64,000 nucleotides of DNA from an uncultured virus (IMG/VR IMGVR_UViG_3300025652_000050) (lineage: Duplodnaviria; Heunggongvirae; Uroviricota; Caudoviricetes; Crassvirales): the IMG/VR virus record IMGVR_UViG_3300025652_000050. The stretch is one strand, 5' to 3'. The translations under genes were made by a program, and so were the position numbers. The notes under the pieces were generated by a model. The model did no database searches and was not told the DNA's origin. It was given only the letters and a program-made list of their open reading frames with translations. Positions 811-64,000 of the stretch are shown one piece after another (position 1 is the stretch's first letter; each line of letters begins with the position of its first letter).

Positions 811-828
811 AACTCTTGAATGTACGAA
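811..828 (-). repeat. attI-like conserved site, copy 1
   Basis: AACTCTTGAATGTACGAA, 17/18 identical to reverse complement of 57385-57402; abuts the cassette end. Confidence 0.55.
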
Positions 829-28424: not shown

Positions 28425-28465
28425 AAAAACAACAACACAACTATTTTAAAAACCACTAATTAATG

Positions 28466-29086: not shown

Positions 29087-29099
29087 GATATTTTAATAT

Positions 29100-29194
29100 A
29101 AAAAGAAAATCCTCAAAGAGCCACTACGCATCTTCAAGGATTTCTCGTTTAGGGTGTTTCACCTATTTATCTTAAACGCAAGTAGTGGATTGCA
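29100..29194 (-). ncRNA. Structured leader RNA of HNH gene A
   Basis: Three hairpins plus CCACTAC/GTAGTGG loop-loop pairing; covaries with 44925-45019; TACATTTG promoter at 29198-29205. Confidence 0.75.
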
Positions 29195-29246
29195 TTGCAA
29201 ATGTATAAAAAAAATCATTACTTTTGTTAATATAATTAAATTAAAT

Positions 29247-43789: not shown

Positions 43790-44191
43790 ATGAATTTTAC
43801 AGTAAAAAAACATAGTACGGAAGAAGTTTATGATATTATGTGTTCCTTTTGGGATATGCATAAATTTCCAAGAGTAGATTTATCGTATCTACCTGTAAAC
43901 ACATTCATTGTCTATTCAGAGGAAATTCCTTTGTATTCAATGTGTTTTTACTTTACAGATGCGAAAGGTTTAGCTTGGATAGCATGGCAAATTTCAAATA
44001 AAAATGTTACATTTAAGAAAAGAGATGGAGCATTAGCAGTACTTTTAAATCATATAAAAAACTATGCTAAGAAAAAAGGGGTAGGATTTCTTATGACAAC
44101 CTCAAATACTGAAGCAGTAGTAACCGTTCTTAAAAATTCAGATTTTATTGAAGGTGATTTGAATGTCAACCAATATTTTTGCAAATTATAA
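43790..44191 (+). CDS. GNAT-like protein of the podovirus virion module
   Basis: AWIAWQISN...GALAVLL...AKKKG pattern; position ahead of the ejection proteins. Confidence 0.55.
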   Translation: MNFTVKKHSTEEVYDIMCSFWDMHKFPRVDLSYLPVNTFIVYSEEIPLYSMCFYFTDAKGLAWIAWQISNKNVTFKKRDGALAVLLNHIKNYAKKKGVGFLMTTSNTEAVVTVLKNSDFIEGDLNVNQYFCKL

Positions 44192-44911
44192 TATTAATCC
44201 TTTTTGTTTAAAAAATAATAATCTAGCGTTATATCCTTCTTCTTTTGTTTTAAAGTATCCTAAATTATATGTTTTTCCATTAAAAGAAGCTCTGGCATAA
44301 AAAACTTGACCTTTTTTGTAAACACATTTATATATATCTATTGACTTTTTATTTCTTACAGATAGAAAATCTTTGCCTAACAAATATAATTCAATAGATT
44401 TTTTTCTTGCAAATATAGCATCTTCTTTATTATCAAATACCCCTATGTTATATGCTTTATTATCAAAAAAAACACTTGCTCCAAACTTTCCGTTTTTAGA
44501 CAAATACAACCCTAATTCACCTGTTTTATTAAAAATATTTTTAGAATCATTTTCTCTATGAGAAATTATTTGTAAATTACATAATCTATTATCAGTTTTT
44601 ATATTATTTATATGGTCAACTATTTTGTTGTGTCCATTGGGAATATGATTTAAGAAAACATTTGCAATCAAAACATGTATAGCATTAGGTTTTTTATTGT
44701 TACAAACACAAAGACAAATGTATCTATATGTTTTAAAAAAAGAACCCTTTAGTATTTTTGTTTTTTTTCTGCAACTTTTTACTCTTCCTAAATCACTTAC
44801 TTGATATAATCCTTCATATTCTGGAATATCTTTCCAAATTTCTTCACAAACTTGACCTTCATCATTTGTGTAAATTATATTTTCTAAACTTAAGTTTTTG
44901 TAGTATTCCAT
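44186..44911 (-). CDS. NUMOD4-HNH homing endonuclease with two AP2-like repeats (copy B)
   Basis: First 40 aa identical to copy A; VDHINNIKTDNRLCNL; YNIGVF and YNLGYF repeats. Confidence 0.9.
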   Translation of the reverse strand: MEYYKNLSLENIIYTNDEGQVCEEIWKDIPEYEGLYQVSDLGRVKSCRKKTKILKGSFFKTYRYICLCVCNNKKPNAIHVLIANVFLNHIPNGHNKIVDHINNIKTDNRLCNLQIISHRENDSKNIFNKTGELGLYLSKNGKFGASVFFDNKAYNIGVFDNKEDAIFARKKSIELYLLGKDFLSVRNKKSIDIYKCVYKKGQVFYARASFNGKTYNLGYFKTKEEGYNARLLFFKQKGLIL

Positions 44912-44924
44912 GATGTTTTAATAT

Positions 44925-45019
44925 AAAAAGAAAATCCAAATAGAGCTACTACACATCTATTTGGACTTCTCGTTTAGGGTGTTTCACCTATTTATCTTAA
45001 ACGCAAGTAGTAGATTGCG
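44925..45019 (-). ncRNA. Structured leader RNA of HNH gene B
   Basis: Same fold as 29100-29194 with CTACTAC/GTAGTAG pairing; TATATTTG promoter at 45023-45030. Confidence 0.75.
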
Positions 45020-45096
45020 AGACAAATATATAAATATTAATTCAATTTAATTAAAAAAAATCATTATTTTTGTTTAATAATTTATAAATTATAATT

Positions 45097-50200: not shown

Positions 50201-53200
50201 TAGAGGTCAACAAGCTGACCAAATAGTTTATCAAACAAAACTTAAAAACTTTGAACAAAATGCAACAGAACAACAAATCGAAGAAGCAAGTAGACTTGCA
50301 GACGAAATTATCGAATCTGAAAAAGAAATTAGAGAGTCTTCCCCTAAACGAAAGGGTAAAAGTGTTAGAAAAGGTAAACGAACTACTTTAAAAAAGACAT
50401 CATCAAATAACGGTAAAATAACTGATGTAGAGTATAGTGATTTTATTGATAAAGGAATTGTTTCAGAAGAAAGGTTAAGTAGTATTGCTAATAAAGTTAA
50501 AAATCAAGAAAAACTTTCAGAAAAAGAAACAGCTATTTTTAACGACAAAACTTCTGAAATTAATGAAATACTAAAAAATGAAGCAACACCGGCAGAAAAT
50601 AATGTTCCTGATGGAAACTCTGGGATTGGAGTTAAGCCATTGGGAGAGATGGGAGAAGCAGGGAAACAAGAAGGAGCAGTTGATAACCAAGAAGGTATTC
50701 AACCAACCGTTGAGTCCAAGCCAACTGAGGGAAAAGTTCAAGCAGTAAAAATTTCAGTTGGAAAATACGATTATACATTTGAAAATGGAACTTGGACCGC
50801 AAAAGATAAAGATGGAAACATTAAAGAAAAAAACAAATCTACTTATATCAATAAGAAAGGTAAAAAAGTAAAAAGGAAAGAAAAGTACATTCCAAACAAA
50901 GTTTATGAAGAATTTGCTAAAACAATTAACTTTACTGAAGGAGAAAAAGTAATTGATGACCCTTATGTTAATGGAGAAGAATATGTTTATGAAGTAGCTA
51001 AAAGGTCAAAAAATCCTGCTGAAATAGCGGGAGAAATTGCTTATGCAGAAACTCAAGATTTTAATGAAAAGAAGCACCCTTTACTTTTAGCAATAGCAAA
51101 AGTTATAGGAACAAAATCAGTAAACAGACAAAGTTTTATAGACGCTAGTGATATTAGTAATATTAATCAATCAATAGGACTACAATACTTTACTCCAAAA
51201 GAAAAAGGTAAAGGAAAAGGTATTGACCAAATAGCACAATATGTAGAGATTGAATTTTATGGTGATTACAATGCTAATGAACCAAGAGTTACAGAGGAAG
51301 ATATTGTTAAGTTTATTTTAGATAATCCAGGAGGAACTGAAAAGTTTTTAAACGAAAATAAGAATGAAATTTTAGATTCTTTAAAAACTGCATTTACAGA
51401 TGTAACCGGATTACCTGCAAACCAAAAATTTTTAGAACAAGCTATTGACCAACAAATTGAAAAACAAGAAAGAATAGCAGGTCAAGACATTTTATTTGCT
51501 TATAATCAAGAGCAACTGATAGAATTATCAAAAGAATTAGATGAATTTAAAAAACAAGAAAATGGAACAGAAACTACAACCAACAAGTCTGATGAAAAAA
51601 TTAGCAATCCTAAAAATATTGCAGAAAGCCAACCAAAATCAGAAAGCGAAGAAGTTTCTGGAAAACAAGTTGAAGGAAACAAAAGAAGAACCGACCAAAT
51701 AAATGATATACTAAATGATTTAGATAAGAGGTTAGAAGATTTTGGAAGAAACAACCTTGGTATTAATATAGCAGGAGTTGTTGCAAGAGGAGCTATAAAA
51801 GCAATGAAATTAGCCAACAATGGAGTTGCTACATTAGAAGATGTAGTAAAAGCAGGTATTGACTATATAAAATCAACAGATTGGTATCAGAATTTAGATG
51901 AATCTAAGCAAGATATGATTAATGAAAATACTTTATTGGACATTTTAGATAACACCATTAAAGAAAACGAAAAATCAAAAAAAGTAATTGCTGATTTAAG
52001 ACAGAAAATAAAAGACAATAAATCAAACGCAAAACAAATCGTTGAGGATATTAAAAACTTCTTGGCAAATAATTCTATTGATGGAGTTCTTACACCTGCA
52101 CAAGCAGATGCTTTAATTAGAAAATCAAATGATATTTTAGTAGCAACAGATACTTTAAAAGCATTTGATAAATTCATTGAATACTATGAAAAAGTAAAAA
52201 CAAAAGCAGAGAACAAACTTAATGACAAAGCTAAAATAAAGGCTAAATATGAACAACAAAAGAAACAAGTTTTAGATTTAAAAGCTCAAGGAAAATCTTT
52301 AGCAGATATAATTTCAATACTTAATCAGTCAAGAGTAAAAGAGTTGTCTGAAAAAGAAACTCAAATTGTAGAAATGATTTTTAAAACTGCTGATGTAGCT
52401 AAAATGACTAATGCAGAAATAAAAACCTATGTTGATGAAATGTTTGCAGAATCAAGAAAAATCGTTTCTGATTCAAACAAGCCTTGGAAAAGAGTAAAAG
52501 AATCGTTTAAAGGATTAAGGGTTAAATTCCTTGATTCACAAGCAACTGCTAAGAAGATACTTAACAAGAGTAATTTATCTTTAGTAACAGATAGAATGAT
52601 TGCTTTAAAAGGTGCTTCAGCAAAAGCAGAAATTGTTTTTGAACAAGCTAAAACAAAAATTTACTCTAAATTAAACACAGAGCAAAGGCAAAAACTTGAT
52701 GAAATTATTTCATTAAGAAGAATAATTGCAATTGACAAAAATAGGGCAGAAAGAGGATTAACTCCTTTATTACACTCTAAATATGTTAATGGAGAAATGT
52801 CTCAAAGAAAACTAGAGACAATGGAGCAAGATATGGGTAAAGAAGAGTTTGATAATCTTAATGAAAGAGCTGATTTTTACTTTGATGAATTTAGAAATAT
52901 TCTAAATGAAATGGAAGAAAATGGTTTAATTAGTAAGCAAACTAGAGACCAATTATTTGAAGTTGATTATCAACCAAGAAAGTTTTTACATCACTTAATG
53001 AATGGTTCCGAAGAAATTTCAGAGAATGCAAAAGCATGGCAGAAATCAACTTATGGATTATCAGGAGACCAAGTATTAAAACTAGACCAAGGTTCAGTTG
53101 AAGCAATGGTTTTAAATTCTGAATGGCTTTTAGCAACTGCAGTAAGTATGCGACAAAAAAGTATGTTTATGAATAAGTTAAATACAAAATTAGCAACTGA

Positions 53201-55376
53201 ATTTAATAAAAAATCTACTGAAATAGAAGCATTAAGACAAAAACCAAATAAAACTAAAGCAGAAATAAAGCAGATAAAAGAATTTAAGAATTTATCAGAA
53301 ACTTTTATACCAAATCCTATTATTGGAGTTACAAAATCAGGTAACCCAAAGTATAAATACAATACTGTAAAACCAGGATATAGAAATGCTTACTACTATG
53401 TTAATGGAGTGCAGCAGAAAATAATGATGAAAGAAGAAATTTACGAGCAATGGTTTGGGGAGAAAAAATTCATAAACAATCCAAAAGCAATTGAAAAATT
53501 AGCTAAATGGAGTGGTTCAAGACTTCTTAAAACAATGGCAACAGGTAGAAACCCATTATTCTTTATAACAAATACTCCTAGAGATTTTGTAAATACTTTA
53601 ATTGTATCACCTGAGTATAGTAAATTCAAACTTTTAGCAGCAGGTCAATTGATTAAAGATTTATTAAAATCATTTGTAGCAATTAAGAACAAAAACGATT
53701 CATTTGAAAAGTATTTTGAATATGGTGGAGGAATGTCATTTTTAAGTTCTGAAGGAATGTTAACAGGTAAAAGTTTGACAAGAGAAATACTTGAAAACTC
53801 TAAAAATAAAACTGTAAAAACTATATTAGATGCCAATATAAAAGACAAGGCAGGAAAAGTATTAGATTGGCTTACATTACATGAACTTAATCAATATTCT
53901 GAACTTATTTTTAGAATTGCAATATTTGATAGAACAGTTAAAAATGAACTTGGTAAAATAAATGAAACTGATATAAACTCTCTTTCAAAAGAACAACAAG
54001 AAGATATTTATTTCAGAGCAGTTGCTTCAGCTAGAAGTGTAATGGATTTCAATCAAGGTGGTTACATCACTAAAGATATGGAATCAGTTATGCCTTACTT
54101 AAATGCTGCAACACAAGGTTCAAGAGTTTTAATGGATGCATTCGTTGAAAGACCAATAGAAACAACATCTAACATACTTCAATTAACTGCTATGGGAGTT
54201 ACAGGAGCTATGGGTATGTCGATTGCTTTATCAGGACTAGGAAAAGATGATGATGACGAAAGAACATCAACTCAAATTTACTTAGAAAATCTTGAAATGG
54301 TTAGTCCATACGATAGAAGAAACTTTTTCATAATTTTTACAGGTAGAAAAGATGAAGATGGAAACCCAGAATATTTAAAATTTGCAAAAGCACAACAAAT
54401 AACTCCATTTACACAAATAGCAGAACATCATACTGAAAACTATTTCAGAAAACAATATGGTTTAAAAGAAAAAGACAATTTATTAGAAAAGTCTTTATCA
54501 GCAGTAAATGATAATATTTCTCCAATACAGTTTATGTCATTTAAGGATGACCCATCATTAGTAGGCATATCATTAATGGCTAGAAACCCATTTGGAAGAG
54601 CTGCTATGACTTACGCAACAGGTTATGATTTTTACAGACAAGAAAAACTTTCATGGGATATTGATAATAAAGATGTTCCTAAATATATGGAAGGATATAC
54701 TTCTGATAGAGTAGATGATTTTTATAAAGAGTTAGGTCAAGATTTAAAAATATCTCCTATAAGAACAAAAGCTTTTGTGGAAAGTATTGTAACATCACCA
54801 GGAACAAATCCATATTTAGGTGTAATTTATGCAGGATTAGATGCAACAATGTCAGAAGATCAAACTAAAAACAGACTTGAAATTTTAAAAGAGAACACTT
54901 TAAAAAACATTGGTAAAAGAGCGATTGGTTTTGGAAAACCATACAATGTTACTTTAGAAGAGAAGGAAAAACTTAAAGAACAAATTGAGGAGATTCAAGC
55001 AGAAAATATTATTTTCAATAAAAAAGTTGATGATATTGCAAAAGGATTTATCAATAAAACTGAATCACGAAAAGTTTTAGTAGATAGATTGAAAAAAGAA
55101 CTAAAATTAGAACCATTTAAAGCCGAGAGAGCAGTAAAAAGATTGGAAGATAAGATTAAGTTTAGCGATGTTGACCAATTCTATTTAGATTTAAAGTACG
55201 AGAATAATAATGAAGTAAAAGCTTTAATGATTTTTAATAAGTTTGGTGATATAAGCAAACTATCTCCTGAAAAAAGAAAAGAAGCAGGAAAACAACTTGA
55301 AGATATAAGTTTCACGTTTAATGATGAAACTGCAAATAAGTATAGAGAATTACTTATAGAATTTGAAGAAAGATAA
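47250..55376 (+). CDS. Giant internal virion / ejection protein
   Basis: 2708 aa; G/A-rich hydrophobic segments; MDFNQGG...PYLNAATQG C-terminal region like large polyvalent proteins. Confidence 0.7.
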   Translation: MEENKNIEDPKYVKNVYNALKSKVDGFNKTEQEFNESLKDEAYVMNVHNALSKKINGFNKTSDEFKTLMMPLKKKDGTKTPSTSTTKTPNTGSVPTNGSLDSKQQNKQSAFSTKKVGLPDASGKLVNPISVNEKTPYENENLRIANKAYDYALSKLDKKTSEDRLSSELNQYEFSDGLKEGAKSLFNSIIGDPLTKINEKLGGNKDFKIGEYKPLQKELILAEKEIRKEKPGVKNISSVEIKDRAEKIFIENDLQTQMNQLIDESLPYGYDREGVFKELKLKEINSNDFLRQKIIGAEVHKKQIEQFTDFEKTINKENPTEQDVLQYNSLFEKASIAVKSLKHLEENFDNILKEAKTDGEKLELFKYNYNDFEKFSSNLYTTSLGIIGGASKLAGDTIKYVSPEANKNTPTKVIGNALSGLGDEMMKDANALSNQFYNYKASSLNSFSDLGSFAGQLISQQLPILGTIYLGGNFGVGAVSMSSGGQKIQGLEEQEKSSFGAINYSDGKKLAAGWLYAGAEFFPEKIGTTRIFKDLERTVASASSASRKLFNQGLIKSTPKAIRKTAFNIGLEGGTEYITTEGQITIDQELLGIIKTDYEKKELRKESTIAGGFMGGAMSIGGGAMALIVSQSKLYSDNNDIREVQSLLKNIDKIQQEIENNSLLTDEEKTSLYKEMNEINNKAFDIVAKNANKGVDLSFQDKSLLVDFNSKQIDLKEKYKEIVNSNFSKEIKDSKIKEIESEFNTLEKNRVKVLNGEYTVLDSMSDSESLKYKYKAAKELLADAKSKGLTDTKIKFTEEQINKKAIEIYNNSKINLNAKKGDELYTNEIKTKVDDVQENAVTKEEQSPQSQTEIKETEQEVLDVDEETETTTTISEALNDNKDIYVYNGEKGQVNLSGEIVVFETNDKIIDLGNINDLSEATLEEFGITKEQELDIVLNEDNSIEFNGKKYVNNYSNPESAFSKDKDGNYTVSLETENGQKRTFRGQQADQIVYQTKLKNFEQNATEQQIEEASRLADEIIESEKEIRESSPKRKGKSVRKGKRTTLKKTSSNNGKITDVEYSDFIDKGIVSEERLSSIANKVKNQEKLSEKETAIFNDKTSEINEILKNEATPAENNVPDGNSGIGVKPLGEMGEAGKQEGAVDNQEGIQPTVESKPTEGKVQAVKISVGKYDYTFENGTWTAKDKDGNIKEKNKSTYINKKGKKVKRKEKYIPNKVYEEFAKTINFTEGEKVIDDPYVNGEEYVYEVAKRSKNPAEIAGEIAYAETQDFNEKKHPLLLAIAKVIGTKSVNRQSFIDASDISNINQSIGLQYFTPKEKGKGKGIDQIAQYVEIEFYGDYNANEPRVTEEDIVKFILDNPGGTEKFLNENKNEILDSLKTAFTDVTGLPANQKFLEQAIDQQIEKQERIAGQDILFAYNQEQLIELSKELDEFKKQENGTETTTNKSDEKISNPKNIAESQPKSESEEVSGKQVEGNKRRTDQINDILNDLDKRLEDFGRNNLGINIAGVVARGAIKAMKLANNGVATLEDVVKAGIDYIKSTDWYQNLDESKQDMINENTLLDILDNTIKENEKSKKVIADLRQKIKDNKSNAKQIVEDIKNFLANNSIDGVLTPAQADALIRKSNDILVATDTLKAFDKFIEYYEKVKTKAENKLNDKAKIKAKYEQQKKQVLDLKAQGKSLADIISILNQSRVKELSEKETQIVEMIFKTADVAKMTNAEIKTYVDEMFAESRKIVSDSNKPWKRVKESFKGLRVKFLDSQATAKKILNKSNLSLVTDRMIALKGASAKAEIVFEQAKTKIYSKLNTEQRQKLDEIISLRRIIAIDKNRAERGLTPLLHSKYVNGEMSQRKLETMEQDMGKEEFDNLNERADFYFDEFRNILNEMEENGLISKQTRDQLFEVDYQPRKFLHHLMNGSEEISENAKAWQKSTYGLSGDQVLKLDQGSVEAMVLNSEWLLATAVSMRQKSMFMNKLNTKLATEFNKKSTEIEALRQKPNKTKAEIKQIKEFKNLSETFIPNPIIGVTKSGNPKYKYNTVKPGYRNAYYYVNGVQQKIMMKEEIYEQWFGEKKFINNPKAIEKLAKWSGSRLLKTMATGRNPLFFITNTPRDFVNTLIVSPEYSKFKLLAAGQLIKDLLKSFVAIKNKNDSFEKYFEYGGGMSFLSSEGMLTGKSLTREILENSKNKTVKTILDANIKDKAGKVLDWLTLHELNQYSELIFRIAIFDRTVKNELGKINETDINSLSKEQQEDIYFRAVASARSVMDFNQGGYITKDMESVMPYLNAATQGSRVLMDAFVERPIETTSNILQLTAMGVTGAMGMSIALSGLGKDDDDERTSTQIYLENLEMVSPYDRRNFFIIFTGRKDEDGNPEYLKFAKAQQITPFTQIAEHHTENYFRKQYGLKEKDNLLEKSLSAVNDNISPIQFMSFKDDPSLVGISLMARNPFGRAAMTYATGYDFYRQEKLSWDIDNKDVPKYMEGYTSDRVDDFYKELGQDLKISPIRTKAFVESIVTSPGTNPYLGVIYAGLDATMSEDQTKNRLEILKENTLKNIGKRAIGFGKPYNVTLEEKEKLKEQIEEIQAENIIFNKKVDDIAKGFINKTESRKVLVDRLKKELKLEPFKAERAVKRLEDKIKFSDVDQFYLDLKYENNNEVKALMIFNKFGDISKLSPEKRKEAGKQLEDISFTFNDETANKYRELLIEFEER

Positions 55377-55433
55377 AATAAAGTTTGGGAGTAGCCACCA
55401 ATTAAAAAACGTGAGGTATTTTATTTAAAATAG

Positions 55434-55463
55434 AAACCCTATCCGATTGAGATAGGGTTTTTT
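55434..55463. terminator. Terminator between convergent modules
   Basis: AAACCCTATC...GATAGGGTTTTTT. Confidence 0.85.
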
Positions 55464-55490
55464 ATTTTCAGGGAGTTTAACTAATACTTG

Positions 55491-55628
55491 TTAGTTTTTG
55501 TCGTTGATTATTTCTACTATTTCTTCAACAGTTTCACAAATAATCATTGGTTCATCACAGTCTAACATGTTGTATGCTTCGTAGCCTGAAACTTTGCTTG
55601 GTTCTATTCGGTAGTTTTTGTAAGTCAT
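55491..55628 (-). CDS. Small hypothetical protein (45 aa, not in ORF track)
   Basis: MTYKNYRIEP...IINDKN*. Confidence 0.55.
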   Translation of the reverse strand: MTYKNYRIEPSKVSGYEAYNMLDCDEPMIICETVEEIVEIINDKN

Positions 55629-55640
55629 GGAGTTTTGGTG

Positions 55641-56405
55641 TTATTTGTTAAAAATACAATATTTTTCTTCGTAAATTCCTAATTCGATATTAATTTGATT
55701 TCTTAGTTCTATTCTTTTTTCTAAAGAATGTTTTTTGCTTATTTTTTTAAGCTTTAAGACTATTTTTTTTGCTTTAAATGTTAGTTCCTCATATTCAAAA
55801 GATTTTAACTTAGGAGTTTCTGTAGCCTTTAAATCTGTTATAAAGTTCATATAATCTTGTCCATACTCTCTAATAACTCCTTCTCTTAAAAGACCATCAT
55901 CATTTTGAAAGTGATTTGACTGAGCATTTTGTCTATGAATATTATGTAAATTATACTTAATATTTGAATTACCACCTCTTGCGTATATATGACCTGCGTG
56001 AATTTGACCACCTCTTTGTCTTGCTAAACAATCTAATCCAAAATCTATTAATCTAACTATTTTATTAACTTCTTTTTGGAGTTCGTTTTTCCAATTAGTT
56101 GTACTTGATTTAAGTTTTTGTTTAAACTTTTTCTCATTTTGTATTTTAGTTTTTTCAACTATTTTTAAAGCATACGAAACTTTACAATCTATATTATCAC
56201 AAACTTTATTTTCATACCTACCAACTGGCATGAAATATTCTTTACATTCTTGACATTTTTTTTTCTTTATTACTAATGGAGATTTCAGTTTCAAATTTGG
56301 TTTTTTGTCCTTGTTGAAACATTCTCTTGAACAATGTCTTTCAGTTTTACTGTACTTTGGAGTAAATTCTTTTCCGCAACTTGGATTTTTACACTTCTTT
56401 GCCAT
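55641..56405 (-). CDS. NinG/Rap-like recombination endonuclease
   Basis: N-terminal CxxC clusters; LQKEVNKIVRLID, HAGH, NIHRQ motifs. Confidence 0.75.
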   Translation of the reverse strand: MAKKCKNPSCGKEFTPKYSKTERHCSRECFNKDKKPNLKLKSPLVIKKKKCQECKEYFMPVGRYENKVCDNIDCKVSYALKIVEKTKIQNEKKFKQKLKSSTTNWKNELQKEVNKIVRLIDFGLDCLARQRGGQIHAGHIYARGGNSNIKYNLHNIHRQNAQSNHFQNDDGLLREGVIREYGQDYMNFITDLKATETPKLKSFEYEELTFKAKKIVLKLKKISKKHSLEKRIELRNQINIELGIYEEKYCIFNK

Positions 56406-56597
56406 CTATTCTGTTTTTTCGATTAACAATTTAACTTCTTTCCAAAACTCCTTTGTTTGAGTCGGTGGAACTTTGAATCCAATGTAAGCTTCGTGTTGTG
56501 TAGCACTTATACATTCTTCTACTAAAATCATAACATACTCTTTGTTGTTATCAAATTTAGCCATTAATTCAATTAGTTTTACTTCTGGTTTTTGCAT
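56406..56597 (-). CDS. Hypothetical phage protein, similar to 11362..11580
   Basis: P..K.IEL..KF...FWKEVK pattern. Confidence 0.65.
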   Translation of the reverse strand: MQKPEVKLIELMAKFDNNKEYVMILVEECISATQHEAYIGFKVPPTQTKEFWKEVKLLIEKTE

Positions 56598-56598
56598 T

Positions 56599-56802
56599 TT
56601 ATAAAAATATTAGTTTGTGGTTAATTCCTTCACGAATTTTAATTCGCTTCTCTTTGTACAGTTTCATTAGAACTTCTCGACATTCTTTATAAGAAATTCC
56701 AAATTCATTCTGAACTTTTACAATTGGTGTTCCGCATTTATTACCGTTTGATTTTTGCTCAAACTCTAGGAATAAAAATATTTCAAATTCTAAATCTTCC
56801 AT
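56599..56802 (-). CDS. Small winged-helix-like protein
   Basis: GNKCGT...LMKLYKEKRIKIREGIN; ATG 56802. Confidence 0.6.
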   Translation of the reverse strand: MEDLEFEIFLFLEFEQKSNGNKCGTPIVKVQNEFGISYKECREVLMKLYKEKRIKIREGINHKLIFL

Positions 56803-56900
56803 GCTAAGTACATCTATATAAGCAGTAAAAAATAAAAAAAGCAATTATCCATGCTATTAATTCATCTATAATTTTATTTAGTTTGTTTCTATTCATAATT

Positions 56901-57164
56901 TTAAAATTTAAACATTGTTACTGGATTAACTCTAATTTCCCAAATTTCAAATACCCATTTAGGTTGGTCTATTGTTTCTTTTTTAGGCTCAATTGCTTTT
57001 TTAGGCTTCTTTTCTTTAAAAACTTTTAAATTTTTTTCTTCCATATATTTATTTACAGAATTAAAGCTAACTTCTAGGTTTAAAGAAATTTGATTGATTG
57101 ACATTTTTAGTCTATTTTCTGAAATGAAGTCTTTTTGTTTTTTTGTAAATTCTTTTCTTTTCAT
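56901..57164 (-). CDS. HTH-like protein
   Basis: MSINQISLNLEVSFNSVNKY. Confidence 0.6.
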   Translation of the reverse strand: MKRKEFTKKQKDFISENRLKMSINQISLNLEVSFNSVNKYMEEKNLKVFKEKKPKKAIEPKKETIDQPKWVFEIWEIRVNPVTMFKF

Positions 57165-57176
57165 TCACGTTTTGGT

Positions 57177-57365
57177 TTAAAATGGTGTATATTCTTTTTT
57201 TGGTTTTAATATTTCGTGTTTATCACGTGCTAATTTTTCTGCTATTGCATCACGAATGAAATCACAAACTCGAATGTTATATTTACCTAAATTTTTCAAT
57301 GTTGTACTTTGAATTTTGGTTAATTTTACGGTTTTAACTTCTGTATATTTTAGTGGTGTTGGCAT
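57177..57365 (-). CDS. Small ribbon-helix-helix-like protein ending PKKEYTPF
   Basis: KTVKLT...VCDFIRDAIAEKL; last 27 nt identical to 1069-1095. Confidence 0.7.
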   Translation of the reverse strand: MPTPLKYTEVKTVKLTKIQSTTLKNLGKYNIRVCDFIRDAIAEKLARDKHEILKPKKEYTPF

Positions 57366-57384
57366 AGATTTGTGATACTTTAGG

Positions 57385-57402
57385 TTCGTACATACAAGAG
57401 TT
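57385..57402 (+). repeat. attI-like conserved site, copy 2
   Basis: TTCGTACATACAAGAGTT; GTT at 57400 begins the cassette. Confidence 0.55.
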
Positions 57403-57412
57403 GGCAGTAATT

Positions 57413-57877
57413 TTACCCAACATTGCGCGCCAATTGCAATTCGAGTTTTTTAATGTTTATCATTTGAGAAACTACATTGCAAATTGCGTTCGCTTGATTA
57501 ATGTAAGTTTTGTCTTTTTGTACTTTTTGAATAGTATCTAAAAGAATTACACTCAAATCATTTTCTTGTATTGCTACAATATTTTTTTTATTTTCTTCCA
57601 TTTTATTAGGGTTGAGTTCGTCTTTTTTCACTTGTATTGATACATTTTTTAATTCATTTTGTCTTTTTTCTAAAACTCCTTGTTTTAGTTTTACTCTTAC
57701 AGGAATTAAATTCTCAATAAATAAATCTATTTCGTTTTCAAAGAAATTATAAGTTTGCTTATCTGTAAAAACAATATAAGTAACTCCTACTTTTTTCCAT
57801 TTAGTTATAGTGATAATTTTATCCTTATAATTAAATTTCTTATCGATTAATAAATTTAGCTTTTGTTGCATCTTCAA
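57413..57877 (-). CDS. Hypothetical protein, cassette cargo
   Basis: ORF whose stop overlaps the cassette end repeat. Confidence 0.7.
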   Translation of the reverse strand: MKMQQKLNLLIDKKFNYKDKIITITKWKKVGVTYIVFTDKQTYNFFENEIDLFIENLIPVRVKLKQGVLEKRQNELKNVSIQVKKDELNPNKMEENKKNIVAIQENDLSVILLDTIQKVQKDKTYINQANAICNVVSQMINIKKLELQLARNVG

Positions 57878-58121
57878 GTTGTTGTTTTAGCTCTAAATTC
57901 AAGTCATAAAGTTTTATAATCTCTATTGATAATTTCTTTATTTGCTCGTCTTTGGTTTCTTTTTCTTCATTCATCGCTCCGTAATATCGGGTGCAAACAG
58001 ATGTAGCAGTTCTTCCAGTTTTCAATGAAGCAATAAAAAACGCTTCTCTTAAATTATTAGGGTTTTTTAAAACCTCTTGTTTAATAATTTCTTCTTCTTC
58101 TGTGGTCCAATTTTTTGCCAT
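57840..58121 (-). CDS. Myb/HTH-like protein, cassette cargo
   Basis: WTTEEEEII...GRTATSVCTRYY. Confidence 0.65.
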   Translation of the reverse strand: MAKNWTTEEEEIIKQEVLKNPNNLREAFFIASLKTGRTATSVCTRYYGAMNEEKETKDEQIKKLSIEIIKLYDLNLELKQQLEDATKAKFINR

Positions 58122-58218
58122 AATATTATTTTTAGTAAAGTTTTCCTAAAGTGGTCGAATTTGACCACTTTAAATATTAAATAGTTAGTAAAATTTTCCT
58201 AACATCAAAAAACTACTG

Positions 58219-58345
58219 CCAACACGTGCTATAAGAAATAGCGGGTTCGGTGCTTTCTGAAAGTTCAGGTGTATTTTTAAAATCTGTCATAAATTTAAAG
58301 TTTAGTTTTTATTAATCCGCTACTTCTCATAGCACCATACGTTAG
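58219..58345. repeat. attC-like imperfect palindrome
   Basis: CCAAC/GTTAG core; GTGCTATAAGAAATAGCGG vs CCGCTACTTCTCATAGCAC (17/19); asymmetric AC vs CATAC spacer. Confidence 0.72.
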
Positions 58346-58563
58346 TAGCAAGAATACGATTTCGTTTCATTCGCGAATCTCCAATGCTCGTTTTTTTCTA
58401 TAAATCCAATATTACCATTTGATAACTGAACGGAATGTAAGTATCCATATATAGCTATTTTGTCTTTACTTTCAAAGTCAACTTTTATGATAGTTCCATA
58501 TAATCCTTGATAATTTCCACTTATAAATTTTACGTTGTCACCGTTTTTTAATTCCTTTTTCAT
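58342..58563 (-). CDS. Small KOW/SH3-like protein
   Basis: GDNVKFISGNYQGLYGTI KOW pattern; stop lies in the hairpin core. Confidence 0.65.
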   Translation of the reverse strand: MKKELKNGDNVKFISGNYQGLYGTIIKVDFESKDKIAIYGYLHSVQLSNGNIGFIEKNEHWRFANETKSYSCY

Positions 58564-58648
58564 AATATATTTAGTTTTATAATAACTGCTATATTTAATA
58601 GCTATTATTTAATTTCTCTTCTTTTTCCCTTGTAATACCATCTGTTAT

Positions 58649-60130
58649 TTAAAAAGGAATATCATTTTCGTCAGGTAAATCAAAAGCATCTTTTATGCTT
58701 ACTTTTGGAATTTCTAATAATTCTACTTTTACAATATTTGGATTTTCTCTGAAATATCTACCTGAAATATTTTGTCCTAAATGTTCTAAATCCATAAACC
58801 TCATGTATTTTAATTGACAACCAACTCTGCAATATCCTGTTTCTCCATGCCTATATTTAGCAACTTCTATTTCTGCTTGGTCAATTGTAGGAGAACGTTC
58901 GTCGTCATCCCATTCATCTATTTTATAATATTCTGGTCGATAAATAAACATAACAACATCTGCATCTTGTTCTATTGATCCAGAATCCCTTAAATCAGAT
59001 AGCATAGGTCTTTTACTTGAACCTCTTTGTTCTACACTTCTTGACAATTGTGCTAATGCAATTACAGGAACATCTAAGTCTTTAGCTAGAGCTTTTAGAG
59101 AATTTGATATTTCTGCAACTTCTTGTTCTCTATTGTTTATTTTTTTATTTTTTACTTTCATTAATTGTAAATAATCAACAAAAATAATTTTAATAAATTT
59201 TTCTCTTTTTAATTTATTGCTTTTTATTTTTAACTCAATTGGAGAAATTCCACTTGTATCATCAATTGTAATTGGTAAGTTTGCTAATAAGTCAGAACAT
59301 TTTTTTAATTCTATTATTTCTTGTGGTGTTAAGTTAAAACTATTTATTTTTACAATATCGATACCTGAAATAATACTTAACATTCTTCCTATTATTTGTT
59401 TTTCACTCATTTCAAGACTAAAAAAAGCAACAGGAATACCTCTTAAACCACATTCAATTATTTCATTTAAAGCGTATGCAGTTTTACCACTTCCAGGTCT
59501 TCCTCCTAAAACTATTAAATCTGAATTTTGGAAACCATTTAGTTTTTTATTTAAAAGTGTTAGACAAGATTTTACACCTGGATTATTATTTTTATTACTA
59601 TTTAAATAAGCATTTACATTTTCTTTAAAATCTGAATCTTTTCCAACGGTTATTAAGTCTGTAACTTCCCCAAATTCCTTATAAGCTTTTTCTAATAATT
59701 CAAAAACATCAACATCTTCATTGTATGAATCCTCTATCATATTTGAAGAAACTTTTATACATTTTCTTTGAATATATTTTTGAAGTAAAATTCTTGAATG
59801 ATATTCTATATGAGCTGAAGAAGATACTTTTTGAGTTAATTCTATTAAAGTAAAATCTCCACCAATTAAATCTAATTTAGATACTCTTTTTAATTCTGCT
59901 GAGACTGTTAATAAATCAACTCCTTTATTTTGATGATATAAATTAATTATTGCTTCGAAAATAAATTTATTACTTTCTTTGTAAAACACATCAGGAGTAA
60001 GTAATTCAACTGCTTCATTTAAGCCATTTTTATCAATCATCATAGCTCCAATTACAGCTTCTTCTAAATCTATCGACTGAGGAGGTAATTTACCTTTATT
60101 TAGATCTATTATATTTGATTTCTCTACCAT
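58649..60130 (-). CDS. dnaB: Replicative DNA helicase DnaB
   Basis: PPQSIDLEEAVIG, GGRPGSGKT, FSLEM, VDYLQL, QLSR, SGSIEQDAD. Confidence 0.97.
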   Translation of the reverse strand: MVEKSNIIDLNKGKLPPQSIDLEEAVIGAMMIDKNGLNEAVELLTPDVFYKESNKFIFEAIINLYHQNKGVDLLTVSAELKRVSKLDLIGGDFTLIELTQKVSSSAHIEYHSRILLQKYIQRKCIKVSSNMIEDSYNEDVDVFELLEKAYKEFGEVTDLITVGKDSDFKENVNAYLNSNKNNNPGVKSCLTLLNKKLNGFQNSDLIVLGGRPGSGKTAYALNEIIECGLRGIPVAFFSLEMSEKQIIGRMLSIISGIDIVKINSFNLTPQEIIELKKCSDLLANLPITIDDTSGISPIELKIKSNKLKREKFIKIIFVDYLQLMKVKNKKINNREQEVAEISNSLKALAKDLDVPVIALAQLSRSVEQRGSSKRPMLSDLRDSGSIEQDADVVMFIYRPEYYKIDEWDDDERSPTIDQAEIEVAKYRHGETGYCRVGCQLKYMRFMDLEHLGQNISGRYFRENPNIVKVELLEIPKVSIKDAFDLPDENDIPF

Positions 60131-60996
60131 TATTCTATTCTTTTTCTTTTGTTAGGATCAGGAACTATTATTTCTTTATGATTAATTTGTTTAATAACTG
60201 TGTTTTTCTTTGCTAATAGTGTTGATATTTTTTCCCTTAATTTAGATGTGGAAAGAATGTTTGATTTCCAAAACTCTCCCTCTTTTGAATTTAGATATGA
60301 ATAAGCGTCTCTTATTTGCTGTTTAGTTACTTTATCATTATCAATCATTAATCTTATTGGCTCTACAAAATTTTTATATTTTGTTTTTTCTATTTGATTT
60401 GTCGGAGAACCTTTTTCTTTTAAGTTATTAATAAATAGTTTATAAAAACCAATAGCAGTATTATAATTAAAAAGAGAGTCTTCATTTATTTCAATTTCTA
60501 AATCTTTAATTTTAAAAAACTTTTTATCGTCTGAAATTTTAATTTCTGACAAAAGAGAATTATTAAGTATATTATTATTGTTTAATTGTTTATTGTTTAT
60601 ATTGTTAGTTGTTGTTACTTGTTTGTTGGTTTGTTTGTTACTTGTTTGTTGTTTGTTTGTTGTTTGTTTTTCTTGAGTTTGATAATCATCATATTTTACA
60701 ACGTCTAACAAGGTGTATTTGTTTGTTGTTTGTATGTTGAGTTCGTGTGTTTTTGTTAGTTTAAAAATCGACGTCCTAATTTGCTGAATTGTGAGGTTTG
60801 TTTCTTTAGATAATGCTTGATTACTCGTTATAAAACTTCCTCTTTTTATATCAATACCTCTCCAATTTTTATCTTCCCAATTTGCTTTTAAAAGACAGTG
60901 TATAAACAAAGTTTTAGTATTTATGTCTGAATACCACTCCCAGTCTAAAAGTTTTCGATGTAATGTTATAAATCCACTCATATTTTTAAAGGTCAA
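60130..60996 (-). CDS. Replication initiator (lambda O / DnaD-like)
   Basis: GFITLHRKLLDWEWY N-terminus, low-complexity T/N/K/Q linker, FWKSNILSTSKLREK; adjacent to dnaB. Confidence 0.8.
   Translation of the reverse strand: MTFKNMSGFITLHRKLLDWEWYSDINTKTLFIHCLLKANWEDKNWRGIDIKRGSFITSNQALSKETNLTIQQIRTSIFKLTKTHELNIQTTNKYTLLDVVKYDDYQTQEKQTTNKQQTSNKQTNKQVTTTNNINNKQLNNNNILNNSLLSEIKISDDKKFFKIKDLEIEINEDSLFNYNTAIGFYKLFINNLKEKGSPTNQIEKTKYKNFVEPIRLMIDNDKVTKQQIRDAYSYLNSKEGEFWKSNILSTSKLREKISTLLAKKNTVIKQINHKEIIVPDPNKRKRIE
60575..60670. repeat. Iteron-like repeats inside the initiator gene (putative ori)
   Basis: TTGTTACTTGTTTGTTG at 60612 and 60635 within a TTGT-rich run. Confidence 0.55.
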
Positions 60997-61171
60997 ATCC
61001 TAGAGAATGCTTCATATAGAATACTTCAAGAGGTTTCCATGAATTAGAAGTCATTCTATTGCTAATAGTTACTTTATCAAGATTAAGTTTTTTAGAAAGA
61101 TCCTCTTGAGTCATCTTTCTTCTTGATAGTTCTAATTTAATTTTTTCAGATGTTGTTAATCTAATTCCCAT
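60986..61171 (-). CDS. Cro-like HTH regulator
   Basis: MTQEDLSKKLNLDKVTISNRM; TATATTTG promoter at 61195-61202. Confidence 0.75.
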   Translation of the reverse strand: MGIRLTTSEKIKLELSRRKMTQEDLSKKLNLDKVTISNRMTSNSWKPLEVFYMKHSLGFDL

Positions 61172-61313
61172 AATAAGTATGTTTATTTTTTTTACAAATA
61201 TATAAATTAATTTTAATTAATTAATAAAAATTTATAAAAATAATTTAAAAAAAAAACTATGAGTATTAATAAGACCCATAGTTTTATGTAGTTAAAAGTT
61301 TCTACTCTACAAA

Positions 61314-62030
61314 TTAAAATTCGATAATAGTAACTTTGTCTTTTATTTTTTCAACTTCCTGGTTTACTCTTTGTTCAAATTGAGATTCAATTAGTTCAGC
61401 AGCATCTACGCTTTCAAGAGAACATTTAATATCAGAACCATGAGCTTCTAAAATAACATTTACTTCGATTTGAATTGGGTCCTCGCCTTCTAAAAGAGGT
61501 AATTTAAGTTTAATAGCATCAGGCATATTACTTTCAACAGTTTGTTTGAAATTTTGAGTAACATTTCCTTTTCTATCATCTGCTTTATCTATATCAGCAT
61601 TAACTTTTGCCTTTAAGTTTCTTAAAGTGTTGCAAATAGAAGCGTGTTCCATATTACTAACAAACATTGATCTTAAAAGTTTAAGTTTGTTTGCTAATTC
61701 TTCTGGTGAATATAACATCTTATCGTTATTAATCCCAAGAGAATTGAATTTTTTTGAAACTGAAATTTCACCAATAACAGTATATTTATTAACTACGCTT
61801 TGTTCGTTTAAAATTAATTCAATTACACCATCTGTTTTTGAAACCATACAATGTGCTTTACTTCCTTCAAATTCAGTAATCTTACCTTCTAAAAATCTTG
61901 AAGGAGCATCAATATTACCTTTAATATTTACCGGTTGTGGATTATGTTGTTCAGGTGCTTTTCCTTCTAAAATAACCAAGTTAGTTACTCCATTTTCAAC
62001 CATTGTCTGTACTTTTTTGTCGTTACTCAT
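61314..62030 (-). CDS. Hypothetical phage protein
   Basis: 238-aa ORF followed by a hairpin at ~61252-61284. Confidence 0.75.
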   Translation of the reverse strand: MSNDKKVQTMVENGVTNLVILEGKAPEQHNPQPVNIKGNIDAPSRFLEGKITEFEGSKAHCMVSKTDGVIELILNEQSVVNKYTVIGEISVSKKFNSLGINNDKMLYSPEELANKLKLLRSMFVSNMEHASICNTLRNLKAKVNADIDKADDRKGNVTQNFKQTVESNMPDAIKLKLPLLEGEDPIQIEVNVILEAHGSDIKCSLESVDAAELIESQFEQRVNQEVEKIKDKVTIIEF

Positions 62031-62469
62031 TTGTTCCTGTTTTTAAAGTTTTAATTTTTGTTTGTTTTTCTTCTGAAGTTAATCTTCTTGCATCAACACA
62101 AATACCTGTGTTATCAAAAGAATACATCATACCTGAAGCTTGGTCATCAACAAGGAATAGTTTTCCGTATTTTTGCTCTGACTTAAATTTAATAGACTCA
62201 ATTAAAATTGATGCTTGAGCTTTTGGTTCTTTTTCCAGAAGTTTAAATCTGTCCATTGCTTCTTTTTTCTGTTTAGCAAGTTCAGATAATTCAATACCAA
62301 TTTGAGAATATTCGTCTTTTCTCTCAGCTACTTCTTTTTCAGTAAGATTTTTTGTGTAGCTCGTCTCTTGTAATCCATAAGCAACTGCTTCTAAATTGTC
62401 TTGGATTTCTTTTTGAGACATTCCTTCAAATGCTTGATCATAATGTTGACCGATTTTAAATGCTTCCAT
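62023..62469 (-). CDS. Hypothetical phage protein
   Basis: 148-aa ORF overlapping the next gene. Confidence 0.75.
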   Translation of the reverse strand: MEAFKIGQHYDQAFEGMSQKEIQDNLEAVAYGLQETSYTKNLTEKEVAERKDEYSQIGIELSELAKQKKEAMDRFKLLEKEPKAQASILIESIKFKSEQKYGKLFLVDDQASGMMYSFDNTGICVDARRLTSEEKQTKIKTLKTGTNE

Positions 62470-62514
62470 ATATTTGGTTTTTGGGTTTTATAAAGGTCGC
62501 CCAAACCTATTGAT

Positions 62515-62862
62515 TTAATTTTTAATTCTCATTGGTTCTAAAATAGCATCTACTATTGATTTTATAAACTCTTTTTTTTCAGATGGCACATGAATAGATA
62601 ATGTTTCAGATTCTCCTTCGTACATTTTTTTTCTACCAGATTTTGACTTAGGTTTGTTTTCTTTTTGATTTTTAATAAAAGTATCAATTGTTTTTTTTAA
62701 TTGTAAACATTCTTCAATACCAATTCCAACCTCTCCTAATCTTTGTTCATTGTTTTTAAATATTTCAAAATTTAAAACATCATCAATACCAGTAATTTTT
62801 AAACTATAGCACAATTCTTCTTTGTCTAATAATAAAATATCTATTTTTTTTTCTTTACTCAT
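62515..62862 (-). CDS. Hypothetical protein, possible RHH C-terminus
   Basis: SGRKKMYEGESETLSIHVP. Confidence 0.65.
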   Translation of the reverse strand: MSKEKKIDILLLDKEELCYSLKITGIDDVLNFEIFKNNEQRLGEVGIGIEECLQLKKTIDTFIKNQKENKPKSKSGRKKMYEGESETLSIHVPSEKKEFIKSIVDAILEPMRIKN

Positions 62863-62863
62863 T

Positions 62864-63583
62864 TTATTGATTTTTAATTTTTTCTGCGAAATAAACCTGA
62901 CCTTTACCTGTTATTTTTGTAGTTCTTGTCGTGAAAGTTTCTGATCCGCTACCAATAGTTCTTGTGATAACTTCAAATAATCCAGAAGCAACATGATTTT
63001 GGTAAGGTTCATTATCTTTATTTAAAAATTTATTTTCTCTAAACCATTCAAAAAGTCTGTTTTGACCTATTTCAAAATCTTCATCGCATAAATCTTTTGC
63101 AAACTGTCTAACTAAAATAGAATTAGAACTACCAATTACACTTTCAGCGAATACAATTTTAGGTTTATCTTCTTCAATTTTATTATTAGCTTCTATTAAT
63201 AAGTTAGAAACACGTTCTTTCTCTATTAATAAAGCCATTTCAGACTGTAAAACTTCAAGATGTGTTCTTGGAACTATTTCTTTTAATTTTTTCTCACAAG
63301 CTATAAAATACTGTCTTGCTTCTTTTCCTTTATCACTTCTTTGAATCATGGAAATTTCTTTAGCAGTATCTAATGTTAAAACAAAGTCTTGAACTTCTTG
63401 ATTTGCAAGGGTGTTAAATACTTTACACCCATTATAATCTACTCCTTCTATGAATCCGTACTCTAATTGTCTATTCATCCAATTAGAAAATCTTTCAGTA
63501 GCACCTAAAAATTCATAAAGATTCCTAGCACTAACTAATTGTTGACCTTTTTCGTTTTCTGTAACTTTAATTAATTCTTTCAT
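62864..63583 (-). CDS. ant: Phage antirepressor (AntA/B N-terminus plus KilAC C-terminus)
   Basis: VSARNLYEFL, LTLDTAKEISM, KPKIVFA, IGQNRLFEW, ITGKGQVYF. Confidence 0.9.
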   Translation of the reverse strand: MKELIKVTENEKGQQLVSARNLYEFLGATERFSNWMNRQLEYGFIEGVDYNGCKVFNTLANQEVQDFVLTLDTAKEISMIQRSDKGKEARQYFIACEKKLKEIVPRTHLEVLQSEMALLIEKERVSNLLIEANNKIEEDKPKIVFAESVIGSSNSILVRQFAKDLCDEDFEIGQNRLFEWFRENKFLNKDNEPYQNHVASGLFEVITRTIGSGSETFTTRTTKITGKGQVYFAEKIKNQ

Positions 63584-63654
63584 AAGTGTTTATTTTAAAT
63601 AATTACAAATATATTAATATTATATAATAAAACAATAAAAAATATAGAAAATTA

Positions 63655-63691
63655 AAAAAAGGTGAGTATTAATACATAATACTCACCTTTT
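63655..63691. terminator. Intrinsic terminator
   Basis: AAAAGGTGAGTATT...AATACTCACCTTTT. Confidence 0.75.
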
Positions 63692-63723
63692 AAAAACATA
63701 AATAATTAAATATCAATTAGTTA

Positions 63724-64000
63724 CTAAAAAGGAAGGTTATCTTTATCCTCTTCATCTGTTGGAGCATAATCTGGCTTAAACTCTTGTGGATTATTATTCA
63801 TAGGGGGTGGATTAAACTGTGCTGCATCTTCTTGTTGTTTATCTGCAGGTTGTATTTTCCAACAAACCAAAGTGTTAAAATATTTATCTTCATTTTGGGG
63901 ATTTGTCCAAAGTTTTCCTCTGATATTTATACCACAAATAACCTCTTGCCCTTCAGTATAAGCATCAATTATATCTGTTTTGTCTCCATGGAGTTCTAAT
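63724..64000 (-). CDS. SSB-like protein (DUF3127-like), partial, not in ORF track
   Basis: ...INIRGKLW...YFNTLVCWKI...DEEDKDNLPF*; OB-fold motifs plus acidic PF tail. Confidence 0.8.
   Translation of the reverse strand, partial: LELHGDKTDIIDAYTEGQEVICGINIRGKLWTNPQNEDKYFNTLVCWKIQPADKQQEDAAQFNPPPMNNNPQEFKPDYAPTDEEDKDNLPF

Follow-up and report, generated by a model that had tools for sequence, protein, structure and literature searches.

A probable short integron-type cassette array in the replication operon of a flavobacterial phage

What accounts for a two-gene segment with complementary ends, lying next to a long hairpin, between the helicase and NinG genes of a phage? The question is raised by a stretch of 64,000 nucleotides from an uncultured virus of the Crassvirales (IMG/VR record IMGVR_UViG_3300025652_000050), referred to here as the window, which represents a phage or prophage with 29% G+C. 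From 55491 onwards, every long open reading frame (ORF) of the window is encoded by the minus strand, and the locus is placed within this block between the genes for a DnaB-type helicase and a NinG-like protein. The closest isolated phages by protein are marine flavobacterial phages, with the helicase being 41% identical to that of Cellulophaga phage phi39:1. An initial annotation, made from the sequence letters, had described the locus as a cassette with two inverted ORFs next to an attC-like hairpin. Integrons are the textbook gene-capture device and are known mostly from Proteobacteria. The analysis described here makes it probable that positions 57385-58348 are a short integron-type cassette array in the replication operon of a flavobacterial phage, whose parts would be one attC-like 133-nt hairpin with its AAC and GTT triplets, one two-gene cassette and one attI-like end site.

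58649-60130, minus strand: DnaB-type helicase gene, replication operon
58216-58348, minus strand: attC-like hairpin, 133 nt, with AAC at 58341-58343 and GTT at 58221-58223; 90.9 bits with R1, the covariance model of the hairpin family
57400-58223, minus strand: two-gene mobile cassette, with complementary 15-nt ends and recurrence in the viral genomes G002 and G003
57385-57402, minus strand: attI-like array-end site, 18 nt, 17/18 identical to 811-828; the minus strand reads AAC, then TCTTGTATGTACGAA
55641-56405, minus strand: NinG-like gene, replication operon

The hairpin of this right locus has a 19-bp stem (58317-58335 with 58226-58244) and a loop of about 72 nt. Over 22 nt its arms (58226-58247 and 58314-58335) are 86% complementary, and the two non-Watson-Crick positions are G:U on the minus strand. 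Folding gives -61.3 kcal/mol for the minus strand as RNA (z -7.5) and -13.7 kcal/mol for the plus strand as DNA (z -1.07), and an Rfam scan of 55000-64000 returned nothing relevant. The hairpin is a member of a family. Indeed, a simple long-stem scan of the window and five viral records yielded 26 candidates, most of which have a TAAC-G 5' flank, a T-GTTA 3' flank and a length of about 133 nt end to end. Upon alignment of 20 sites, TAACG and TGTT are invariant, as are two G:U positions, and RNAalifold predicts 23 pairs, 17 of them with compensatory changes. Paired cells amount to 91.6% compared to 65.4% in shuffles, while the covariation score is 0.615 against 0.161 in shuffles (0.615 being attained by 0 of 500) and about 0.1 with slid partners. 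At 17 of the 20 sites the modelled strand is the better-folding one as DNA. Thus, the view of the initial annotation that structure rather than sequence is conserved in these hairpins is borne out. R1 was run over the window and the main loci with filters off, as the default filters miss the window's own sites, and it finds exactly two sites in the window, 110-244 (plus strand) and 58216-58348 (minus strand), the next match reaching 18 bits; because both belong to the training set, the informative part of this result is the gap to the rest of the window. The second site belongs to a left locus with the same components.

110-244, plus strand: left-locus attC-like hairpin, 101.1 bits with R1, with the methyltransferase start codon (183) in its loop
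237-813, plus strand: left-locus cassette with the DNA methyltransferase gene 183-797; its ends show complementarity of 10 nt, G/A and 4 nt
811-828, plus strand: left-locus array-end site, followed by ORF 820-1095 and the gene for a 413-aa integrase (1098-2339)

The left-locus hairpin had also been claimed beforehand. It is real, as indicated by the R1 match, but its extent of 110-244 is longer than proposed; folding of 95-185 alone gave no hairpin because the structure extends to 244. The gene 183-797 is assigned to DNA methyltransferases by PHROG 799 (E 9.5e-60). Comparison of window 126-230 with G003 44862-44967 shows that the first 20 or so codons of this gene are similar to those of a different, C5-type methyltransferase in G003, since in each case they lie in the 3' arm of a hairpin and the two hairpins are related.

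A 5' end that is complementary to the cassette's own 3' end is a hallmark of integron cassettes. At the right locus, 58209-58223 and 57400-57414 pair by 10 matches, a G/T at position 11 and 4 further matches, so that the complementarity of 14/15 described at first corresponds to the pattern of the family. The 10-mer GTTGGCAGTA has exactly two occurrences in the 64-kb window, 57400-57409 (plus strand) and 58214-58223 (minus strand), and the longer arms 57395-57414 and 58209-58228 are complementary at 17/20 positions (85%). Between 57100 and 58700 there is one inverted 10-mer pair that is G+C-rich (at least 5 G/C), and at least one such pair arises in 4.4% of 500 mononucleotide shuffles; by itself, the pair is no more than suggestive, and it is at the family level that the evidence becomes decisive. 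For this purpose the sequence from the GTT after one hairpin was compared with the reverse complement of the sequence ending at the AAC before the next. A complementary run of at least 8 nt between the cassette's 5' GTT end and its own 3' AAC end is found in 19 of 24 adjacent-site pairs, as compared with 1 of 33 when the two flanks of the same hairpin are used and with 5.9% of all 1056 pairings. Typically, 10 matches are followed by G opposite A and then by 4 more matches, and the complementarity is also present in both window cassettes and in 6/6 cassettes of a related contig, L107, described below. Pairing of the two cassette ends with each other, and not of the flanks adjoining one site, is what points to site-specific recombination by way of a circular intermediate; if conserved hairpins simply underwent general recombination with each other, this pattern would not be expected.

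The same unit is found in other genomes. A protein search identifies the pair of cassette ORFs in four viral contigs (73-100% protein identity). Two of them match at the DNA level, G003 over 58225-57400 (94.7%) and G002 over 58224-57368 (96.7%), and these are complete genomes by the estimate of the collection (59 kb and 72.8 kb, respectively); in two further contigs both cassette genes are present and the terminal repeats are missing. The window and G002 are only distantly related, with 64-79% identity in the parts that can be aligned, and in G002 the cassette is 10 kb away from the helicase gene. Apart from the cassette and two short stretches, G003 is unrelated to the window. The hairpins upstream of the cassette are different in the window, G002 and G003, and each of the three is joined to it at the same base. 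The comparison indicates that the cassette 57400-58223 moves as a unit. At its other end, homology to L015/G004 stops exactly at 57402, and the AAC of the end site (57400-57402) is the last triplet of the cassette.

Hairpin contexts in metagenomes lead to the same positions. The 20-mer of the right hairpin's 5' arm has exact matches in 93 metagenome stretches; contexts were counted in 80 of these 93, of which 57 have both arms and 20-nt flanks. In 35 of the 57 copies the 117-nt core is at least 90% like that of the window with unrelated flanks, and among the 57 copies there are 49 distinct 10-mers upstream and 20 downstream. Of 82 BLAST segments from metagenome contigs, 42 end at 58221 and 45 begin at 58344 (29) or 58351 (16). 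Breakpoints at 57400, 58223 and 58341 had been named as a test beforehand, and those found coincide with them: 57400, 58224/58225 (in G002 and G003), 57402, 58221 and 58344/58351.

Variation among close relatives concerns the whole interval. L107 is 99.9% identical to window 62048-61286, after which its positions 764-2402 replace window 61286-58641, with two ORFs (264 and 232 aa) in place of the genes for a 288-aa protein and the DnaB helicase. It then returns to a short segment shared with the window (58641-58575, 91%).

58575-58641, minus strand: conserved outer boundary segment of the variable locus, 91% identical in L107, with different genes on either side

This segment is followed in L107 by six R1 hairpins and six cassettes, all with complementary ends, by the same end site, by an ORF of the 820-1095 type (99%) and then by the sequence that follows window position 57177. 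The same junction between the end site and an ORF of the 820-1095 type is present in G001, the nearest to the window among the records compared. These alignments indicate that L107 carries a replication-module swap bounded by the segment 58575-58641 and that the dnaB-ninG interval is a variable cassette array. That the interval varies among relatives had been anticipated, and the six-cassette array of L107, together with the different downstream cassette of L123, bears this out. A DNA search of the phage collection with 56800-58900 gave zero matches. In viral contigs the DnaB relatives are distant only, with a short and unrelated interval downstream of dnaB; two of them, L007 and L008, have family hairpins after dnaB. 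Hairpins are directly downstream of the helicase gene in L007 (7480-7613), L008 (7993-8539) and G002 (28249-30113), whose helicases are approximately 47-48% identical to that of the window in protein (L007, L008) or, for the G002 gene, approximately 70% in DNA. Since phages with such distant helicases have hairpins there too, the position after dnaB is a recurrent site for hairpin arrays.

Which enzyme could act on these sites? The sequence next to the last cassette offers a clue. Within the 64-kb window, the 18-mer 57385-57402 (plus strand) has a single other match, 811-828 (minus strand), with the 17/18 identity to the left-locus site that had been noticed at the outset; about 0.17 matches are expected at up to 3 mismatches, and 4 of 100 shuffles gave at least 2. 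Searching with the end-site pattern gave seven sites, each of which immediately follows the AAC that closes a last cassette and is joined to it exactly at AAC/GTT (7/7). Four of the seven are 50-65 nt upstream of a gene for an Xer-like tyrosine recombinase (in G002, G003, L038 and L039, the last two being contigs from bacterial genome bins), and the two end sites of the window and that of G004 precede small ORFs instead. The recombinase has 267 aa (268 aa in G003) and is closest to archaeal XerA (PDB 5hxy, E 7e-33), with 187 bits on NF040815, below the cut-off of 220. On the integron integrase model TIGR02249, the enzymes of G002 and G003 reach 146 bits in two stretches (cut-off 265), and 31 residues are opposite 79 of VchIntIA, which means that the integron-integrase insertion is lacking. 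The acting recombinase is thus likely to be Xer-like and not a canonical integron integrase. The window itself encodes a single tyrosine recombinase, the 413-aa integrase at 1098-2339, which is of another type, and the right locus has no adjacent recombinase, as described from the start; an integron integrase bearing the IntI-specific extra domain, which a complete integron would have, is absent from the window. No family hairpin is present around the Xer-like integrase gene of the Polaribacter phages Freya_1 (MT732463, first 9 kb) and Freya_8 (MT732470, first 12 kb). These two phages are of the same species and differ by about 4 kb, Freya_8 having seven small ORFs upstream of the Xer-like integrase that are absent there in Freya_1.

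The hairpin family is also present in host-type genomes, where the initial annotation had suggested to look for it between chromosomal genes. A scan of bacterial genomes with the Xer-like protein led to a Flavobacterium genome bin (G007) with at least 98 R1 family hits among 150 scored candidates. One of its contigs has 17 same-strand sites in 16.5 kb, with near-identical hairpins and complementary cassette ends. Of 151 genomes sampled from the family to which Flavobacterium davisii belongs, 62 gave a hit (E 1e-6 or better), and these counts are lower bounds as the survey used stricter filters. Flavobacterium davisii itself has no hairpin within 10 kb of its truncated Xer-like gene and three elsewhere in the chromosome. 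TIGR02249 is above its cut-off in 0 of 4 hairpin-bearing genomes, including G007, and all matches skip model positions 180-231 or so. The arrays of G007 (C42, C55 and C18, that is L064, L065 and L067) have cassettes of one to three genes, with several ORFs showing N-terminal hydrophobic stretches, and at one G007 contig end there are three large ORFs (374-455 aa) that may be a restriction-modification or defence unit.

Phage and chromosomal arrays are set apart by gene orientation. In chromosomal arrays, genes run opposite to the modelled hairpin strand and have their stop codons in the core, whereas in phage arrays and in a prophage-like contig of G007 genes are on the modelled, better-folding strand and often start in the loop. 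Accordingly, the cassette-promoter (Pc) arrangement is absent from the window and the other phage arrays, where genes read towards the end site, while chromosomal arrays have the canonical orientation. The right hairpin of the window provides an example of a start in the loop.

58213-58290, minus strand: putative leader ORF of 25 codons, starting in the hairpin loop, with its TAG stop in the first bases of the cassette

In many metagenome copies of the right hairpin, the same loop ATG continues in frame into the downstream cassette. A consensus scan of 58200-58350 found no intrinsic terminator, the loop measuring about 72 nt, though a T-run follows the GTT end.

Taken together, these data are consistent with a mechanism in which a site-specific recombinase would exchange whole cassettes at the AAC/GTT triplets of folded hairpins, with a circular intermediate. 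One strand of the hairpin, possibly the better-folding one, would fold as single-stranded DNA and be acted on by the recombinase. If cassettes recombine through a circle, the 15-nt ends of each cassette would be the two halves of one site and would therefore pair together. The recombinase would act in trans, the best candidate being the Xer-like enzyme of about 267 aa that is beside the same end site in related phages and in an array-rich Flavobacterium genome. In phages, the hairpin may also provide a start codon and serve as a weak terminator, because the strand that folds better is also the one that carries the genes, whose starts are often in the loop. A wider proposal may be made tentatively, at somewhat less than even confidence: Flavobacteriia and their phages might share an integron-like system of their own, in which a short Xer-type recombinase, in place of an integron integrase, acts on 133-nt folded sites and on the end site, and phage arrays at several loci (integrase module, replication operon) serve to exchange cassettes, methyltransferase and regulatory ones among them, both between phages and with the chromosomal arrays of hosts. 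In phages the hairpin would then be a portable start-codon/leader module, since phage cassettes are read from the strand opposite to the chromosomal ones.

Several observations weigh against an integron-type array. Recombination is deduced here from comparison of sequences, with no event observed directly. The window has one hairpin per locus (right and left), fewer than the two or more attC sites within a few kb by which such clusters are recognized, and in its 64 kb there is no recombinase of the Xer-like candidate type. R1 was built from sites of the simple scan with both window sites among them, so that their scores are high by construction. The unpaired spacer is 4 nt and on one side only, in contrast to canonical attC sites, and the ORF next to the hairpin (58342-58563) shows no cassette-end complementarity. 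Canonical integron crossover is at GTT only, and here the hairpin has breakpoints on its AAC side as well as on its GTT side. With about 117 nt of conserved hairpin core, general homologous recombination could also shuffle the flanks. Lastly, G007 is a metagenome bin, which may include contigs of phage origin and from which a canonical integrase gene may have been lost.

Part of these points feeds alternative explanations. According to one, the locus would be an ordinary fragment of a canonical integron, a cluster of attC sites lacking integron integrases (CALIN), with true attC sites used by a canonical IntI of the host and the Xer-like enzyme a phage integrase or dimer-resolution enzyme that happens to be nearby. 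Clusters of this kind have been reported in phages including P12002L, with one site recombined by IntI1 (Qi et al. 2023, PMC9892861), and P12002L has one R1 match of 35.3 bits; the core triplets and the logic of the cassette ends are likewise those of integrons. We nevertheless consider this explanation improbable, as none of the four genomes with hairpins, one of which has at least 98 copies, shows a TIGR02249 match above the cut-off (though bins may be incomplete), the recombinase beside the end site is Xer-like in all four contexts that have one and shows 31 residues versus the 79 of VchIntIA, and breakpoints occur at AAC besides GTT. Less probable still is phage mosaicism, by which the hairpins would be conserved intergenic terminators or RNA-processing sites and homologous recombination between them would shuffle their neighbours. 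The conservation of the hairpin core (about 95% over 117 nt in many contexts), the T-run after the hairpin, the strong RNA fold on the transcribed strand and the co-orientation of phage genes with the hairpin would all suit such a process, and so would the apparent exchange of ORFs 57177-57365 and 820-1095 between a 5' site and a 27-nt 3' end that both have in common, a pattern resembling homology-driven replacement. It does not account for one cassette abutting three hairpin sequences with a junction at the same base, for the end complementarity of 10 + 4 nt with a constant G/T position (19/24 versus 1/33), or for a bacterial array of 17 sites in 16.5 kb with genes on the opposite strand. Finally, the cassette could be a small transposon or an element similar to a miniature inverted-repeat transposable element, with 15-bp terminal inverted repeats and insertion beside hairpins. 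Such an element would agree with terminal inverted repeats that have exact boundaries in three genomes and with the lack of a recombinase inside; given that the repeats vary between cassettes, with only GTT/AAC and the G/T position constant, that no target duplication is seen and that the cargo has no transposase family, the chance of this explanation is close to negligible. A short integron-type array thus remains the preferred reading, and the other features of the locus can be described within it.

57840-58121, minus strand: cassette ORF, 93 aa, weak Myb/SANT-like DNA-binding signature (PF00249, E 0.0018, below cut-off)
57413-57877, minus strand: cassette ORF, 154 aa, no Pfam family, weak match to a function-unknown PHROG
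58132-58202, minus strand: probable cassette control region, with two 18-nt direct repeats (58132-58149 and 58185-58202, 53 nt apart) flanking a palindrome
58342-58563, minus strand: ORF, 73 aa, weak KOW-like signature, stop codon within the TAAC core before the stem
57177-57365, minus strand: ORF, 62 aa, adjoining the array-end site; PHROG 25647 (E 2.9e-16), function-unknown

The two cassette ORFs had been described as inverted, and both are indeed on the minus strand. Copies of the 93-aa ORF (97-100% identical) are found in 4 viral contigs, and the nearest Atlas clusters of the 154-aa protein are viral hypothetical proteins. The palindrome between the 18-nt repeats (58147-58172) has 11-bp arms and a folding z of -5.5, and 58132-58202 is likely to be the cassette's own control region, to which a regulatory role may be attributed. 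On the other side of the hairpin, ORF 58342-58563 has its stop codon inside TAAC, in keeping with the earlier description of an ORF ending in the core. This ORF differs among relatives, since L107 has two other ORFs there, and L123 retains a similar C-terminus together with the hairpin and has a different downstream cassette. A small hairpin at 58581-58609 had been proposed as a possible relic site. This proposal is not sustained, as 9 to 15 of 200 shuffles fold as well or better, R1 gives no match and the hairpin is within the conserved segment 58575-58641.

The 62-aa ORF beside the end site may have a ribbon-helix-helix fold, as read from its sequence. It shares its final 27 nt (57177-57203) exactly with ORF 820-1095 (1069-1095), so that these otherwise unrelated small ORFs have the common ending KKEYTPF and start after the same 18-nt site, and an ORF of the 820-1095 type occupies the right locus in G001 and L107 in place of ORF 57177-57365. 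The small ORF beside the end site thus looks exchangeable within common limits, a 5' site and a 27-nt 3' end, in a manner resembling allelic replacement. A 56-kb inversion through the inverted end-site copies and the 27-nt gene ends, with G001 as the inverted isomer, was considered as well; local replacement fits better because L107 joins ORF 820-1095 to right-side sequence on both sides. Acidic or aromatic tails ending in PF are shared more broadly, as in the helicase 58649-60130 (DENDIPF), ORFs 57177-57365 and 820-1095 (EYTPF) and a cassette protein of L107 (5283-5576, NLPF), and recall the C-terminal tail of single-strand-binding proteins.

Elsewhere in the window, a direct repeat of 257 nt (28953-29209 and 44778-45034, 89% identical) is also present in G001, and each copy spans the start of a minus-strand ORF (28466-29086 and 44186-44911) within the plus-strand structural block. 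A terminator-like two-way hairpin is found at 55432-55462, where a plus-strand ORF of 2708 aa (47250-55376) meets the minus-strand block.

The data point to a widespread cassette system in Flavobacteriaceae, with hits in 62 of 151 genomes and at least 98 sites in one, that extends into phages, and cassettes are seen to have moved between unrelated phage genomes with base-pair precision. Should the Xer-like enzyme prove to be the recombinase, folded attC-type sites could be recognized without the integron-integrase extra domain, which bears on the origin of integrons from Xer recombinases. For phage biology, the system would offer a concrete way in which methyltransferase and other accessory genes are exchanged at defined hot spots.

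Clusters of attC sites in phages have already been published. In particular, Qi et al. 2023 (PMC9892861) describe integron parts in 21 phages, among them Polaribacter phage P12002L, which has two attC sites of about 55-65 nt and methyltransferase cassettes, and in which IntI1 recombined one of the two sites in E. coli. The main text of that paper does not contain the words Flavobacterium, Cellulophaga, Bacteroid- or Xer, and the IntegronFinder 2.0 paper lists for Bacteroidetes only integrase-alone elements and one complete integron. A full-text literature search, with subscription journals outside its coverage, found no publication on a flavobacterial hairpin family with an Xer-like integrase. 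The site family, the extended end pairing, the reversed orientation of phage genes, the end site, the Xer-like candidate and the second locus in the replication operon appear to be new.

The array of P12002L is the closest published counterpart: it too belongs to a flavobacterial phage, carries methyltransferase cassettes that are set between attC-type sites and lacks an integron integrase, and by eye comparison with the supplement (PMC9892861) its methyltransferases resemble those in G003. The R1 match in P12002L is at 39118-39249, while its published sites measure about 55-65 nt as compared with the 133-nt family here; a second locus in the replication operon, an end site or exact transfer of cassettes between phages is not described in the abstract, section 3.4 or supplementary file 1 of that study. 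With Xer recombinases (archaeal XerA, XerC/D), the candidate enzyme shares its greatest similarity, to XerA, and the usual catalytic C-terminal region, and it differs in scoring below the family cut-off (220 bits) and in being placed at the ends of cassette arrays beside the end site and not acting at a dif site. As far as integrons have been described, including the chromosomal arrays of Vibrio, the present system resembles them in imperfect hairpins that keep structure with constant AAC and GTT, in cassettes whose 5' end can pair with the inverse core at the 3' end of the same cassette, in same-strand chromosomal arrays of near-identical sites with the stop codon of the upstream gene in the inverse core, and in an end site beside a divergent tyrosine recombinase gene. 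It departs from them in a candidate recombinase without the integron-integrase insertion, in R-box complementarity that extends to 15 nt with a constant G/T position, in breakpoints at both AAC and GTT, and in phage genes that are on the strand opposite to those of chromosomal arrays and often begin in the loop.

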